Made by a program: the position numbers and the translations under genes
IMG/VR virus record: IMGVR_UViG_2703718769_000016
Location: 1-19,413 of that record
From: a virus
Taxonomy: Duplodnaviria > Heunggongvirae > Uroviricota > Caudoviricetes
Length of the DNA: 19,413 nt
Reading direction: 5' to 3' (one strand)
Part shown: positions 1,633 through 15,305 of the stretch, one piece after another
How the letters are laid out: the number at the start of each line of letters is the position of its first letter
Position numbering within the stretch: position 1 is the first letter of the stretch
The notes under the pieces: generated by a model
Databases searched by the model: none
Seen by the model: only the letters and a program-made list of their open reading frames with translations
What the model was told of the DNA's origin: nothing

Positions 1633-4116
1633 TTAAAAATCAGCTTGACTCGGGATCAGTTTTTGCCAGATTGCTGACACGTATTTTGCCTGGTAACGCG
1701 CATCGTGCAGGGCGTTATGGCGTTCACCTTCGAATGGAATAGTCGTTCTGGCATCGAAATCTATCACCAGTCCCAGAGCAACCATCGTTCGTACATCACG
1801 ATCGTTGTTGTAGCGCCACGGACAGGGGATCCCCTGTCGTTCATATGAACGGCGTAAAATTGCGTTGTCGAAGTTGGCTCCATTTCCCCACACCTGAACA
1901 AAAAATTCACCGGAGTTTTCGGCGATAAACTCCCTGAACTGCAACAGCGCGTCATCCAACGGGATTTCATTGGTAAGAATGGCGGATTGTGCTTCGCGTG
2001 ACTGTTTCAGCCACCACTTAATGGTGTCCCGATCGATGACTCCGCCTGCGGTTTCCAGATCGATAGTTTTGCTGAATTCTGGTCCCATCTCTCCGGTTAC
2101 CGGATCAAAAAACTTACCGGCTATAGCGTTGACTGGCGCATCAGGATTTTTTCCCATTGTTTCAAGGTCAATCATCAGATGGTGCCACAACCTGCTGGTG
2201 GATGTGACTTCATTATGACCGTTCACCTTAATTAAGGGATTTGCTGTCTCGCCAGTTTCATTATCGCTATCGTGATGCTGATCACCGTCAGCATTCTCCT
2301 TGCACGGATGTTCAGGGCTTTCCTGTTTCTCCGGATTTTTTTCCTGATATTCATCCAGGTTTTCTTCATTAAAGGTGTCCTGATACGTTGCGTCGCCCAT
2401 CACCGCGCCACAGTCAGGGCAGTTACCCCCACCAGTCTGGCCGCAGGAATCGCAGGCTTTTTCGGTTTCCGGTTGTGCTTCTGGCTCGTTTTGTAACGCA
2501 TTTGGGCTGTTTTGTTCCGCTTTCTGGCCGTTCTGTTCCGTTTCTTGCTGGTTCTGGTTCACAGAATCGCGGGTTTCAATCCCCTTAACCCATTTCGGAT
2601 CATTTTGGTCGCTAATCCATTCAACAAACTCTCCGCGAGAGGCAGCCAGTACTTTGTCTGCATCGACAGGATTTTTGGGCAGAATGTTTTTCCGTGCCTC
2701 GTGGAGTTCGGCCCGTAACTTCTCGTACTTCGTATCTATCTGTGACTGAGCATCCAGCGGCTGCGTGTCCTGATGATGTTCAGTTGTGTCCGGTTCCACT
2801 GTTTCAGCCGTTGCCTGCTCATCTGCCATTGCGTCAGATGGTTGAGGTTTTTCTTCATCATCCTTTTTTCCTTCTTCTGTTACACGCTGTGGCATCGGGG
2901 CAGAGGAGCGACCGCAGGCAATGGCCACAATCATCGGGTCGGGGGTAGCGTGGTCTGTTTCAGTCAGTACCCTGTTCAGATATTCAGTGACGTGCGCGGG
3001 GATGACCTCGATACCAATTGGTGCTTCTTTCACGGACGCAACCACGATGGCGCGGGAATAATCCAGCCCACCAGGCATGGCGATGAATTTGTCGCGGAAA
3101 ACAGAAAATGGCGGTTTATTTTCAGCGATAATTTCCTCAATGCGTTTCGCGTGTGCCGGATGAAGGTTATAAATGTCCACGTCCATTGAACGAGCCAGTA
3201 CACCTGTGGCCACATCGCGCTCCAGTGACGTCAGATCGTGGACGAAACCTTCGCCGCGATCGGTAAGAATTCCACCGCCAGCATTAGCACCTGATGGGGT
3301 GCGATTGATTTCAGATACATAATTTCCCTTCGCCCACTCTTTTGTCAGTAATCCCTGATCCAGATAATCAGTTTTCATCCAGATGGATATGAACTTGTCG
3401 AATTCTGCCGGGCTGATACGACGGGTTGCTGCGTGAGTGAATGCTCTGGATACCGACTCCGCCAGTCTGCTCAGATGGTGGTTTGTCAGCTTATCCAGTT
3501 CAGGATGAGAGCGTACAGCTGTGAGGAGGCTCTGGAGGTTACTGTCCTCCATATCCATTTCCATGCGGATCACTGTATTGCGTTGTTCCGGTGTTGCGTG
3601 GTGCCTGTATTTTCCGCCTTCTTCCTTGCCGAAAAAGTAGAGATGCAGGAAACGATGAGTCAGACTGAGAGTGGCGACGGGAATTTCACATTCATGGCAG
3701 TCATCGTTACTGTCCTGGGATTTATTTTTCTCTGCGTTCTCTGGCTGAGCACCGCTTTGTTCATCGTTGTCATTGCTGGCTGTTACAGCAGCTTCGCCGT
3801 TGATGTTGTCATTGAAGGGTATAGCCATCATGGTGATACCATCTTCCCCGCCTTTTTCATAGCGGTTGCAGAATTCAGTATCAAACACGCCTTCCGGTGG
3901 AAGGTCATTCACGACGGGGAAATTTACGCGAACGGGTTTTTTGAAATCATCCTCGTCGTAGCCTGCATCGTCCATGGCTGCAATGCAGCGGGAAACTGCG
4001 ACAGAAAGTTTTCTGGCATCAGCCCAGAAAAAACCGCCTTTGATGCCAAGGCGTTTTCTGACTTTATCGTTTTTTGCTTCGCAGTGTAGTGCAAAAGTCT
4101 GTTTATCAGCGCTCAT
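1633..4116 (-). CDS. Prophage exonuclease, 827 aa, with C-terminal DnaQ-like DEDDh 3'-5' exonuclease domain, internal zinc ribbon and acidic low-complexity linkers
   Basis: C-terminus has motifs DLETMG (Exo I), [11 protein letters not shown] (Exo II), [10 protein letters not shown] (Exo III, DEDDh); [16 protein letters not shown] zinc-ribbon-like motif; long D/E/Q/N-rich segments; occupies the recombination-module position between xis and kil. Confidence 0.75.
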
Positions 4117-4906: not shown

Positions 4907-5486
4907 AATTATCTCCATTTTCACAAATGAACTTTGTTGATGCAGTGCCTGGTGCCTCTAGGTGACGTTAACCAGTTAACAATTAACGCCGGAATACATA
5001 AGAGGATACTTACGCCAGTAAAAGACCGCTTTACTGATTTAACTGTTCCGCGTGCGCTTAGCCGCATTCACCGCATCACAAAATTCACTTTAAAAAGGGC
5101 GGCAGAGCAGTCACGGAGTAAAACTGATACCGCCAAACGTCACCAGAAAATTGATAACAGAGGGCGTTGCAGCGGGGTTGTCACTTAAGCGTATGGTCAA
5201 CCTTACAACCCGGTGTCCTCAACGGGGAAGAAATAACCCCGCCATACTTACCGCCGCGCCATTTCGCGGATTGCCACAACCGGAAGCACACGGTCGAAGA
5301 AATCTAACGACAAGCCTTCTAAGGAAAAGACGCCTTCGCCGTGTGCTTTCGTGTTGTGCCCTGACTTTTCAGGGAAATATCCTTTCAGTAAACTGTCAGT
5401 GCCGGATGCTCACCCGTGTCCGGTGCACGTTCTCCCCCTCACCAGTGGATAACTCCAAAACTACTGACAACCCCAGGAGGGTGAAT

Positions 5487-12617: not shown

Positions 12618-12958
12618 CGACTTTTACCAGAGAGCAGTTAATAGCTCACGCAGAGGAGACTATTGAAGCACAGAGACTGTGCATACCGGGCACAATCGAC
12701 AATGACATCATCCGCACATATAAGATGGATATTGCTGTTCTGGAAATCGCACTGGCATCGCTGGCAGCAGAGCCAGCCGGTAAATTGCATGAATACAAAC
12801 CAGTGGGACATCAGCGTCTGGTCGACGAGTTAACCATGCTGGTAAAGCAGTTAACCTGGCAACTGAGGAAAACGAAGCCGGACTGTAAATTGCCGGGTAA
12901 GGCGATGGACTACCTGAAGCGAAACGGACTGATAAGTGCAGAGGATGTTTTACGATGA
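12614..12958 (+). CDS. Hypothetical prophage protein (114 aa)
   Basis: ATG overlaps the upstream stop (ATGA); helical composition. Confidence 0.55.
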
Positions 12959-13038
12959 CCTGGCATGGGGCATTCACAACGGTAGGGATTGCAATGGCGG
13001 TGGTGCTGATTGTGTATTCGATTTGTCGCTGGGGGTAA
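12955..13038 (+). CDS. Putative 27-aa hydrophobic peptide ([27 protein letters not shown])
   Basis: ATG overlaps the stop of the preceding gene (ATGA); single predicted transmembrane helix; too short for the ORF track. Confidence 0.3.
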
Positions 13039-13149
13039 AAACGATTTGCGGGGAAAGGATAGTTAAGTAGAATTGCTGCGGGTGCTTGAGGCTATCTGTC
13101 TCAGGCATGAACACCAAAAGGCAGATAGAGAAAAGCCCCAGTTAACATT

Positions 13150-13215
13150 ACGCGTCCGGCAAGACGCTTAACATTAATCTGAGGCCATATCTATGCTCTA
13201 CACACGTAGGTTAGC
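13150..13215 (-). ncRNA. Predicted Sok-like antisense RNA of the hok locus (approximate position)
   Basis: Inferred from hok-family organisation; candidate minus-strand promoter (TTGCCT then 17 nt then TAACCT) would place a transcript antisense to the upstream in-frame ATG and SD at 13181-13195. Confidence 0.25.
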
Positions 13216-13249
13216 CTCTTACGTGCCGAAAGGCAAGGAGAAGCAGGCT

Positions 13250-13405
13250 ATGAAGCAGCAAAAGGCGATGCTAATCGCCCTGATCGTCATCTGTTTAACC
13301 GTCATTGTGACGGCACTGGTAACGAGGAAAGACCTCTGCGAGGTACGAATCCGAACCGGCCAGACGGAGGTCGCTGTCTTCACAGTCTACGAACCTGAGG
13401 AGTAA
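13250..13405 (+). CDS. hok: Hok/Gef-family type I toxin (51 aa membrane peptide)
   Basis: MKQQKAMLIALIVICLTVIVTALVTRKDLCEVRIRTGQTEVAVFTVYEPEE: hydrophobic TM helix plus conserved RKxLCE...EVA motif of the Hok family; SD AAGGAG; an in-frame upstream ATG at 13193 with its own SD (mok-like leader); structured 3' region with fold-back hairpin and terminator. Confidence 0.8.
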   Translation: MKQQKAMLIALIVICLTVIVTALVTRKDLCEVRIRTGQTEVAVFTVYEPEE

Positions 13406-13475
13406 GAGACCAGGCGGGGGAGAAATCTCCCGCCACCTCTGATGTGTCAGGCATCCTCAACGCACCCGCACTTAA

Positions 13476-13495
13476 CCCGCTTCGGCGGGTTTTTG
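13476..13495 (+). terminator. Rho-independent terminator of the hok transcript
   Basis: CCCGC-TTCG-GCGGG followed by TTTTT; preceded by hairpin GGCGGGGGAGA-AAT-CTCCCGCC at about 13414-13434. Confidence 0.6.
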
Positions 13496-13570: not shown

Positions 13571-14221
13571 ATGAATGAAAATCAGTTAGCTCCTTGTTGG
13601 GAATTTCAACCTTATCTTGCTGAAAGCAATGTTCGCCAGTTGTTGGCGGAGATCGCTAACGTACTTGAGCAGTTGTACTATCATAAGCACGTATTAGACA
13701 GCAACTGGTCTGAAGGTGTAAGGGCTTATGATTGGGTCAGAAACCATCTTATTCAAAATGAAGGCGCAATTCCTGGTCTTAAGATGATTTCCAAGGGGTT
13801 GGACTATGTAGTTGCTTTAAATAAAGTTCCGCTACAATTTACCAAAGATTGCATTAATAACCCCAAAAAGAAACATCGCCTGCGTCGAAATAAAGTAGAG
13901 CATGAGCAGCTTTCATTGTTTGGTGATGTTGAGGCTGAGCAAGATATTACATGGCGAGTCATAGCGGAGCCATTTTTATCCGAAGAGGGAGATGGTGAAT
14001 TAGAGTCCACACTGCCTCGTTGGGAGGTGGCTCTTGTTGGGTTTAATATCTATGGTGCTCAGATTAGTATGGTTTCTCATCAATCTACAGCATCAATGCC
14101 ACTTATGCCCCTTGACGGTAACACACTCCCTGGCGAAGCGGAGATTAATAAGGTGTCTCTTCGTCGGCGTACGAAGGATAAAATTTTGGATGTGAGCAGT
14201 AATGGAACATCAGGTGAATAA
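13571..14221 (+). CDS. Hypothetical 216-aa protein, candidate toxin/effector partner of the HTH-M78 peptidase
   Basis: Long ORF in a low-GC insert; no motif recognised by eye; 3' end overlaps the start of the downstream HTH/peptidase gene by 20 nt (operon). Confidence 0.6.
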   Translation: MNENQLAPCWEFQPYLAESNVRQLLAEIANVLEQLYYHKHVLDSNWSEGVRAYDWVRNHLIQNEGAIPGLKMISKGLDYVVALNKVPLQFTKDCINNPKKKHRLRRNKVEHEQLSLFGDVEAEQDITWRVIAEPFLSEEGDGELESTLPRWEVALVGFNIYGAQISMVSHQSTASMPLMPLDGNTLPGEAEINKVSLRRRTKDKILDVSSNGTSGE

Positions 14222-15305
14222 CTTCACTGAGTATCGAGGCGATAAGCTCAAACTAGCAAGAATGGCTATTGGGCTTTCATGTGAAGAGTTGGCCGAAAAA
14301 ATTGGCAAAACAAAACAATTCGTTAGCAAATTGGAGAAGGGATTTAGGCCATCAGAGCAATGCCTGGAGTTAATAGCCTCAGCTCTTATGATTAAGCCCG
14401 ATTTTCTATTTACTGAGCGAAAATATGCTCTGGAAAGCGATGTTTGCCATTTTCGGAGTAAGAAGTCCAGGACTCAAACGCTGACTAATAGTGTCTTGGC
14501 TAGGGCTGAGATTCTTAATATTATAATTTCTGCTGTTGAAGGTGAAATCGAATTCCCTGATGTCAACATACCAGAGCACCCAGGAACTGAATTACTTACC
14601 CCGAATGATATTGAGCGAGTGGCAGAAGATTGTCGCCGTGCATGGAATCTAGGTCTTGGCCCTATATCATCAATGGTGAAATTGGCGGAGAGTTTGGGGG
14701 TAATCGTTGCGCATGTTACGGGAGTCGATGATCGTGTTGATGCATTCACTGTTCACAATAACAGGCCTGTTATTATCAGGAACAATGTAAAAAAAAGCAT
14801 ATGTAGATTTCGCTCTGATTTAGGTCATGAGTTAGGGCATTTAGTAATGCATGAGGGCATAACTACTGGTGATAAACTTACGGAATCACAAGCTGATCAC
14901 TTTTCTAGCGCCTTATTGGTTCCTAGGCTATCTTTCATTAAAGAATTTCCACGAATACGAGGTAAGCAATTCGATTGGAGTGCTCTGGTTGAATTTAAGC
15001 TTAGATGGAAAATTAGCCTTAAAATGTGTATTTATCGAGCCAGTGCATTAGGACTATTGACCCAGGAACAGGCAAGAACTGGCTATATGCATCTTAATTC
15101 TAGAGGGTACACGAGAGTTGAACCAGGTGATGAACTTTTGCGCCACGAAGAACCAAGTATGCTGTCCGAAGCGATTGACATGCTGGATGATGCAACTTGG
15201 TTAAGAATTCTTATGAAAACTGGCTTGAGTCAAGATTTAATTCGTGAGTTGTTCTCCATCAATCGACCTATTACAAATCCAAGAAATATTTTTCAGATTG
15301 TTTGA
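14202..15305 (+). CDS. Xre-family HTH fused to ImmA/IrrE-type (M78, COG2856) zinc metallopeptidase
   Basis: N-terminal HTH (LKLARMAIGLSCEELAEKIGKTKQFVSKLEKG); HEXXH zinc-binding motif HELGHLVMHE about 140 residues later; 367 aa, typical for HTH-COG2856 fusions. Confidence 0.85.
   Translation: MEHQVNNFTEYRGDKLKLARMAIGLSCEELAEKIGKTKQFVSKLEKGFRPSEQCLELIASALMIKPDFLFTERKYALESDVCHFRSKKSRTQTLTNSVLARAEILNIIISAVEGEIEFPDVNIPEHPGTELLTPNDIERVAEDCRRAWNLGLGPISSMVKLAESLGVIVAHVTGVDDRVDAFTVHNNRPVIIRNNVKKSICRFRSDLGHELGHLVMHEGITTGDKLTESQADHFSSALLVPRLSFIKEFPRIRGKQFDWSALVEFKLRWKISLKMCIYRASALGLLTQEQARTGYMHLNSRGYTRVEPGDELLRHEEPSMLSEAIDMLDDATWLRILMKTGLSQDLIRELFSINRPITNPRNIFQIV

Follow-up and report, generated by a model that had tools for sequence, protein, structure and literature searches.

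The segment at positions 13046–13494 of the DNA analyzed here (the whole 19,413-nucleotide stretch of IMG/VR record IMGVR_UViG_2703718769_000016, referred to below as the window) is, with a probability of roughly 0.8, a type I toxin-antitoxin cassette of the hok/sok family that is complete and probably works, belongs to the hokD/hokW subtype, and forms a moron of a lambdoid prophage, within its early/nin region. Every sequence element of the cassette is present, intact, and conserved. The assignment of the locus to the hok/sok type, proposed in a sequence-only reading of this DNA, is supported by a match of 117.1 bits to the Rfam family RF01794, by a match of the toxin frame to the Pfam family HOK_GEF, and by 93.8% identity to the hokW-sokW locus of Sakai prophage 5 (Sp5). 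The locus belongs to an ordinary, already catalogued type, the hokD/hokW kind of the lambda-like prophages of E. coli, and it matters little in itself, being routinely annotated (as "HokD" by PGAP and as "MokW-like host killing" by PHROG) and having a near-identical allele that has been characterized experimentally. Its use is modest: it represents K-12 hokD in an untruncated, ancestor-like state, it makes clear that the model called "sok" in Rfam in fact reports the sense-strand hok leader, and it illustrates cleanly how one cargo slot of a prophage can hold a type I toxin-antitoxin locus beside a RosmerTA-like defence pair.

Genomic context and prevalence

The location of the locus inside a prophage, also part of the sequence-only reading, is well supported by the other genes of the window, which include those for an integrase, a RecE-like exonuclease, an S24 CI-like repressor, Cro, and YdaT, as well as DicF, the DUF1376/DnaT replication genes, DUF968, RusA, and Q. 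The best match was found in strain SHP24, where a 99.6% identical locus is part of a lambdoid prophage next to potC and sits between ead/Ea22-like genes and DUF968-RusA-Q. In a megablast search with the whole window, none of the complete E. coli genomes covered more than 67% of it, and the prophage is therefore a mosaic. Sequence related to the locus is present in 4942 of the 5426 complete E. coli genomes searched with megablast, with a median of 2 such places in a genome and a maximum of 10, and the name assigned by PGAP to the homologous gene is hokD.

The two genes directly downstream of the cassette (13571–14221 and 14202–15305) match the PADLOC models RmrT (E=3.6e-24) and RmrA (E=8e-107; Pfam HTH_3 and Peptidase_M78), respectively, and constitute a RosmerTA-like defence pair; in SHP24 there is almost nothing in the corresponding slot. 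Directly upstream of the locus there is a hydrophobic ORF of 27 residues (12955–13038) that recurs in at least 35 related loci.

Toxin and leader reading frames

The hok toxin frame (13250–13405, plus strand) encodes 51 residues. Its Hok/Gef hallmark, previously noticed from the translation, is borne out by matches to Pfam HOK_GEF (PF01848; E=2.6e-22, 78.6 bits at a cut-off of 22) and to PHROG 251, "MokW-like host killing" (E=2.8e-32), and the invariant residues of the Hok family are conserved. The NCBIfam Hok models gave matches only under their curated cut-offs (45 bits vs 73), and Pfam and PHROG were used in their place for the assignment. An identical Hok protein is encoded on 24 IMG/VR contigs, and the identity of the window protein to the known family members is 98% for K-12 HokD, 92% for HokW, 80% for HokC, and 39% for R1 Hok. 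The Shine-Dalgarno (SD) sequence of hok, GGAG (13237–13240), read directly from the sequence, precedes the hok ATG by 9 nt.

The upstream in-frame ATG at 13193, suggested earlier to be the start of a mok-like leader with an SD of its own, indeed opens a frame of 70 codons (13193–13405) that shares its stop codon with hok, and its SD, GAGG (13181–13184), lies 8 nt upstream of mok and is invariant in the 52 homologous loci described below. The same in-frame arrangement of mok is found in K-12 mokC/hokC (again with a shared stop), in Sp5 MokW, and in the R1-type locus.

Two minor features of the coding region may be mentioned here. The sequence CUACGAA (13387–13393) carries a TACG motif at the codon of Tyr47 (13388–13390), and is a candidate site for A-to-I editing by TadA, which would convert Tyr to Cys; in K-12 hokD the homologous TACG undergoes such editing (PMC5630033). 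The minus-strand ORFs antisense to hok (for example 13219–13383, 54 residues) were taken as by-products of the hok frame, the hok DNA in this region being almost invariant.

Predicted organization and folding of the hok mRNA

A putative hok promoter, read from the sequence, is located on the plus strand at 13046–13073, with a −35-like hexamer TTGCGG (13046–13051) and a −10 hexamer TAGAAT (13068–13073) separated by a spacer of 16 nt. The Rfam leader match begins 7 nt downstream of this promoter, which is conserved in both SHP24 and Sp5. The full-length hok mRNA is predicted to comprise ~415 nt (13080–13494, plus strand), with its 5′ end placed at position 1 of the RF01794 model and its 3′ end at the intrinsic terminator.

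The match to RF01794, an Rfam family named "sok", extends over 13080–13255 on the plus strand and reaches 117.1 bits (gathering score 59; E=1.6e-26), covering the model from end to end (1–157 of 157); the sole other Rfam match in the whole window is DicF at 5148–5097. Alignment to the hok/relF loci and scoring with the Rfam models, proposed earlier as a check of the locus, place its leader on a par with those of K-12 hokC (118.3 bits), Sp5 hokW (113.5 bits), and hokB (109.7 bits), and the R1-type plasmid locus scores 87.2 bits. In all loci scored, the RF01794 match is found on the hok-sense strand; the model therefore represents the leader of the hok mRNA, and a plus-strand match is the expected one.

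The full-length RNA folds with a minimum free energy (MFE) of −169.1 kcal/mol (z = −7.4), and none of 100 shuffled sequences folds as well. At the 5′ end of the mRNA, both the MFE folds and the RF01794 structure define the tac element GGGUGCUUGAGGC (13080–13092), for which there are three alternative partners: 13098–13108, with which it would form a metastable hairpin, the ucb element at 13133–13139, and the fold-back inhibitory element fbi at 13455–13467. The last of these, CCUCAACGCACCC, is complementary to tac, and in the full-length MFE fold the two elements create a 12-bp helix between 13080–13091 and 13455–13467. In the consensus structure of RF01794, residues 13080–13087 are paired instead with 13133–13139, whereas the MFE fold of the truncated RNA contains the 5′ metastable hairpin (13080–13092 with 13098–13108). 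Both the tac/fbi lock and the 5′ metastable hairpin have been described for R1 (PMC9841398).

The ucb, or anti-SD, box AAGCCCC (13133–13139) would pair with the SD of mok as long as the RNA is closed and with tac once it has opened, and for the full-length RNA a probability of 0.75 was computed for pairing between ucb and the mok SD. The downstream complementary box dcb, GCCUC (13214–13218), is defined by the RF01794 structure, and its pairs are invariant. Close to the 3′ end, the MFE fold includes a 9-bp stem-loop (13413–13434), whose expected role, judging from R1 (PMC9841398), is protection of the 3′ terminus once the hok mRNA has been processed and shortened. The intrinsic terminator (13474–13494) consists of a 7-bp stem, a UUCG loop, and a U run, and was located by a terminator scan (13474–13491 plus the T run). 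The 3′ UTR had been said to contain a fold-back hairpin plus a terminator, and this description turned out to be accurate, with a hairpin at 13413–13434, with 13455–13467 pairing with the 5′ end of the mRNA, and with the terminator at 13474–13491.

When the 3′ 53 nt were left out, the equilibrium fold showed no ensemble shift to the open form (tac/ucb and SDmok/dcb). The R1-type control behaved in the same way, and the result is thus uninformative and does not count against function.

The predicted Sok antisense RNA and its promoter

The antisense RNA, Sok, is predicted to be 77 nt long and to extend on the minus strand from 13201 to 13125, since the RefSeq-annotated ends of both sokC and sokB of K-12 map to these positions (5′ end at 13201 and 3′ end at 13125, alignment A3). 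In its predicted fold (z = −4.65), an unpaired 5′ tail (13201→13186) is followed by an extended hairpin and then by a U tract. Compared with the hokC type, the hairpin is enlarged, with an insertion of 16 nt (13152–13167) relative to RF01794 and with 18 alignment columns that are absent from the hokC-type rows. The sequence-only reading had postulated an antisense RNA over the start of the leader, at about 13150–13215; its overlap with the mok start agrees with the mapped ends of sokC and sokB, but it is better located at 13201→13125.

The Sok promoter (13236→13208, minus strand) is assigned by homology and consists of a −35 hexamer TTGCCT (13236→13231), a 17-nt spacer, and a −10 hexamer TAACCT (13213→13208), with the 5′ end of Sok falling 7 nt downstream of the latter. 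The hexamers match the consensus at 7 of 12 positions, and a generic sigma-70 scan flagged neither this promoter nor that of hok, both of them being weak matches to the consensus. Because of this weak match and the absence of a flag in the scan, the support for the Sok promoter comes from homology, namely from the annotated ends of sokC and sokB and from the mutated −10 region of sokW. In Sp5, the "pro-less" primers YO-421/422 convert TAACCTA of sokW into GAGCCGG, and protection is abolished (PMC8621323). When the published primers were mapped onto Sp5, this mutation was found to hit a −10 hexamer identical to that in the window; the minus-strand element TTGCCT-17 nt-TAACCT is present just as it was first read, and carries the same −10 hexamer as the one silenced in sokW. 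The window and Sp5 are identical throughout the −35/−10 block and the Sok hairpin, and the stretch homologous to the predicted Sok is covered both by YO-592, the probe used for sokW of Sp5 in northern blots, and by the sokW fragment that gave complementation.

Comparison with known hok/sok loci

The closest characterized relative is hokW-sokW of Sakai prophage 5 (VT2-Sakai; PMC8621323), with 93.8% nucleotide identity over 13040–13477 (96% of the query). Both loci have a 70-codon in-frame mok and a 51-residue Hok (92% identical), and both are located in the early region of a lambdoid prophage, after ead/Ea22-like genes. The tac, ucb, Sok hairpin, Sok −35/−10, dcb, hok SD, 3′ hairpin, and fbi elements are identical in the two sequences, and the window falls in the hokW-sokW prophage allele group, its full locus being more than 90% identical to Sp5 and located in a lambdoid prophage. 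The differences comprise common polymorphisms of the leader hairpin that preserve pairing, the allele of the Sok 5′ tail and mok start (6 of 16 positions), the C terminus of Hok (FTVYEPEE in the window and FVDYESEK in HokW), and the intrinsic terminator after fbi, which is present in the window and in K-12 hokD but not in Sp5 hokW. The downstream cargo differs as well, with the RosmerTA-like pair of the window replaced in Sp5 by a YgiW-like gene.

Disruption of conserved mRNA elements relative to functional hok loci had been named beforehand as an observation that would speak against a working cassette. It was looked for in the alignment with Sp5, and no pairing, start codon, SD, or promoter hexamer is broken relative to the functional hokW-sokW. 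For this reason we consider the copy in the window to be intact at the sequence level and probably active. For Sp5 itself, Takada et al. 2021 (PMC8621323) reported that HokW acts as a toxin, that the sokW promoter is needed for protection, and that sokW supplied in trans gives partial rescue. After treatment with mitomycin C, sokW is lost and the production of HokW sets in, dependent on RecA, and deletion of hokW-sokW halves phage release (PMC8621323).

The second comparison, with hokD (relF) in the Qin prophage of K-12, bears on whether the locus could be a decayed remnant of the same kind, that is, a toxin ORF devoid of its own promoter, mok, Sok, and tac. The PGAP name hokD would suit such an interpretation, and so would the protein, which is 98% identical to K-12 HokD and differs from it by A46V only; the hok SD, coding sequence, 3′ hairpin, fbi, and terminator are ~97% identical between the two loci, and both are found in lambdoid prophages with DicF. 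The homology of K-12 hokD to the window is, however, limited to the region from 13236, at the hok SD, to the terminator, with relE taking the place of everything upstream, so that the hok promoter, tac, ucb, Sok, and mok are missing in K-12. RF01794 has no match in the K-12 hokD region; in the window it matches over its entire length with 117 bits, and mok, the Sok promoter, and tac are all in place. The full-model match and the retained upstream half refute the decayed remnant, to which we assign a negligible probability. The window, with its complete upstream half, differs from the truncated K-12 type of hokD, and the label "hokD" fits its protein only.

The architecture of hokC (gef)/mokC/sokC of K-12 is the same as that of the window, with an in-frame mok that ends at the hok stop codon, and with Sok overlapping the mok start. 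This locus differs in its DNA (~68% identity), in the length of its antisense RNA (59 nt for SokC and a predicted 77 nt for Sok of the window), and in its position on the core chromosome, next to nhaA and with IS186 downstream. The founding member of the family, hok/sok (parB) of plasmid R1, shares with the window a 70-codon in-frame mok (18 + 52 codons in the R1-type locus) and the order of the elements, which is tac, ucb, Sok, mok SD, dcb, hok, 3′ hairpin, and fbi. The 5′ end of the mRNA reads GGCGCUUGAGGC in R1 and GGGUGCUUGAGGC in the window, and the Sok −10 hexamer is found at the homologous position, as TATCCT in R1 and as TAACCT in the window. The equilibrium-fold statistics of the R1-type locus and of the window are also the same. 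R1 differs in that its Hok is just 39% identical to that of the window, and in being plasmid-borne and serving plasmid maintenance.

Conservation of the regulatory structure

The fold was tested on 52 de-replicated homologous loci collected from IMG/VR and GTDB genomes. In the full-length fold 94.9% of the cells are paired, compared with ~40% in slid controls, and compensatory changes affect 23 pairs in the true fold and 8–17 in the slid controls. The tac/fbi helix is paired in 98.1% of the cells and has no compensatory changes, as both of its sides are near-invariant; the tac/ucb pairs are invariant in 51–52 of the 52 loci, and the SDmok/dcb helix (5 bp in the RF01794 structure) is paired in 100% of the cells. 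Given the near-invariance of these three helices, their support comes from conservation and not from covariation. Compensatory changes were seen only in the Sok-complement hairpin, the 3′ hairpin, and the terminator. In the 3′ stem-loop (13413–13434), 97% of the cells are paired and two pairs carry compensatory changes (in 13 and 10 sequences), and in the terminator stem such changes are present in five of the seven pairs. Nucleotide diversity (π) is 0.018 for tac and 0.017 for fbi, and amounts to 0.040 for the Sok promoter in a set of 42 loci.

These data are relevant to the possibility that the locus is intact in sequence and yet physiologically silent, being transcribed but with Hok never attaining a toxic level under natural conditions, and that it persists as a hitch-hiking selfish remnant that has no effect on prophage or host. 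The chromosomal hokA, hokB, and hokC provide a precedent, because, according to a recent report (10.1101/2025.08.07.668861), these apparently intact loci support neither post-segregational killing nor activation by rifampicin; integrity of the sequence is therefore no guarantee of activity. The weak consensus match of both promoters, and the only roughly two-fold effect of hokW-sokW on phage yield (PMC8621323), point in the same direction. On the other hand, the strong conservation of the regulatory helices across the 52 loci (π of 0.017–0.05) and the compensatory changes in the stems would be unexpected without selection, and for hokW-sokW, the nearest relative, toxicity and protection by Sok have been demonstrated. 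A silent locus thus appears unlikely to us, and a probably active cassette is the preferred interpretation.

Proposed mechanism and biological role

We infer the transcription, processing, toxicity, and neutralization of this cassette, as well as its biological role, from its homologues, and the molecular steps outlined here rest on R1 and hokW. The weak promoter would give rise to a stable hok mRNA of ~415 nt, in which tac at the 5′ end pairs with fbi at the 3′ end and ucb sequesters the SD of mok, so that the full-length RNA would be neither translated nor bound by Sok. Slow trimming of the 3′ end as far as the stem-loop 13413–13434 would then permit pairing of tac with ucb, exposing the translation-initiation hairpin of mok. 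The short-lived, 77-nt Sok would pair, by means of its 5′ tail, with the mok start region, thereby blocking the translation of mok and the coupled translation of hok, and the resulting duplex of Sok with the hok mRNA would be marked for RNase III. Once the synthesis of Sok stops, upon induction or loss of the prophage and possibly upon superinfection, Mok and Hok would be made, and Hok would depolarize the inner membrane.

The role that we consider most likely is assistance with lysis and phage release on induction, as in the case of hokW-sokW, with prophage stabilization and phage exclusion as alternatives. A cassette acting mainly in phage exclusion (abortive infection) or as a prophage-addiction module, instead of as a lysis helper, would differ in its biological role only, the molecular mechanism being the same as described above. 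The presence of a RosmerTA-like defence pair immediately downstream, the four-fold enrichment of hok in prophages, and a 42% reduction in T4 plating by R1 hok/sok (as cited in PMC8621323) would all favour such a function. Nevertheless, hok genes overall are reported not to be enriched near defence systems (10.1101/2025.08.07.668861), and the sole direct test of a prophage allele, that of hokW-sokW, revealed a positive effect on the release of the phage itself (PMC8621323). We regard a role chiefly in exclusion or addiction as less likely than a contribution to lysis and phage release.

Variability of the Sok 5′ tail and mok start

The region that includes the 5′ tail of Sok and the start of mok (13186–13201) is a hypervariable patch, with π = 0.349. 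For comparison, π is 0.027 at the third codon positions of hok, 0.050 in the Sok hairpin, and 0.10–0.16 in the most variable of the other non-coding parts. Among 42 de-replicated prophage loci of the hokD/hokW type, which represent the unbiased set for the variability of the tail and, apart from it, share more than 85% identity with the window, the 16-nt tail is found as 13 discrete alleles. These differ from each other at 1–10 of the 16 positions (3–10 among the commoner alleles), and the only features kept across them are the ATG and the register of the stem. A wider patch of 29 nt has 30 alleles among 140 haplotypes; a pattern-based scan of IMG/VR, which forces identical flanks, was used for counts of alleles alone, and not for variability.

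We tentatively suggest, at somewhat less than even odds, that the 16-nt tail could be a hypervariable cassette that determines specificity, in which diversifying or balancing selection would keep the hok/sok loci of co-resident prophages orthogonal, with each Sok controlling its own hok. A search for avoidance of a shared tail allele by co-resident copies gave no signal, as 9 of 10 within-genome pairs differ, compared with ~89% expected at random. If the variability of the tail does reflect selection for orthogonality, it would explain how E. coli tolerates up to 10 related copies of hok/sok. The tail of the locus in the window represents the commonest of these alleles.

Sequence variation at the hok/sok locus

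The most variable part of the hok/sok locus is a short patch (positions 13185–13207) that comprises the 5' tail of the predicted Sok RNA, codons 1–5 of mok, and the spacer leading to the Sok -10 element. Nucleotide diversity (π) in this patch is 0.31–0.35, compared with 0.04–0.05 in the Sok hairpin and promoter on either side of it and 0.027 at the third codon positions of hok. The variation is partitioned into 30 discrete alleles (140 haplotypes), the commonest of which is that found in the window itself. When patch alleles present within one genome are compared, nine of the ten pairs differ, a proportion no higher than would be expected at random.

In all loci tested, the match to the Rfam model RF01794 ("sok antitoxin") falls on the hok-sense strand; these loci include the window (13080–13255), the hokW locus of Sakai prophage 5 (Sp5), and three further comparison loci (L251, L252, and L253). 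The 157 positions of the model extend from the 5' end of the mRNA up to the hok AUG. Since this is the extent and the strand of the hok leader, it is the leader that the model describes, and the strand given by a match is therefore the opposite of that of the real Sok RNA.

The hok coding region and terminator

A TadA motif, TACG, is located on the plus strand near the end of hok, within the sequence CUACGAA (13387–13393), where it consists of the Tyr47 codon TAC (13388–13390) and the G that follows, and represents a candidate editing site. CUACGAA is the seven-nucleotide anticodon loop of tRNA-Arg2, and it is through A46V that the window matches this loop exactly. The homologous position in K-12 hokD carries UUACGAA rather than CUACGAA, and is edited there, converting Tyr to Cys (PMC5630033).

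An intrinsic terminator hairpin follows hok in the window (within 13472–13495), as it does in K-12 hokD and most other loci. The characterized Sp5 hokW locus diverges immediately past the fold-back inhibitory element and lacks the hairpin in the corresponding region (3437–3470 of that locus).

Near-identical hok loci are also found on two tiny contigs (275–431 nt) labeled as Acinetobacter idrijaensis and Xanthomonas pisi, and a locus with 96% identity is present in an "Actinobacillus phage" record (PP818812.1). All three are probably E. coli-derived contamination or mislabeling, and not a true host range.

Neighboring genes

Upstream of hok, a plus-strand ORF (12955–13038) encodes a hydrophobic peptide of 27 residues. 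It shares an ATGA overlap with the stop codon of the preceding gene (114 aa), and the putative hok -35 element lies 8 nt beyond its end. Close variants of the peptide that begin with MTWPEA[LF] precede hok in 35 or more related loci, and some hok loci have a different small hydrophobic ORF at this position. Searches of Pfam and PHROG returned no match for the 27-aa ORF.

Directly 3' of the hok terminator, two overlapping plus-strand genes (13571–15305) encode a 216-aa product matching RmrT in PADLOC (E = 3.6e-24) and a 367-aa product, with HTH_3 and Peptidase_M78 domains, matching RmrA (E = 8e-107). Judged by these matches, the pair looks like a RosmerTA-type anti-phage toxin/antitoxin. In the closest hok-bearing prophage, that of E. 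coli strain SHP24, the slot after hok holds only a 279-nt gene.

Farther away, on the minus strand (5097–5148), the window carries the DicF antisense sRNA (a full-length match to Rfam RF00039, scoring 76.7 bits where the gathering score is 48), an element typical of the immunity regions of Qin/Rac-like prophages.
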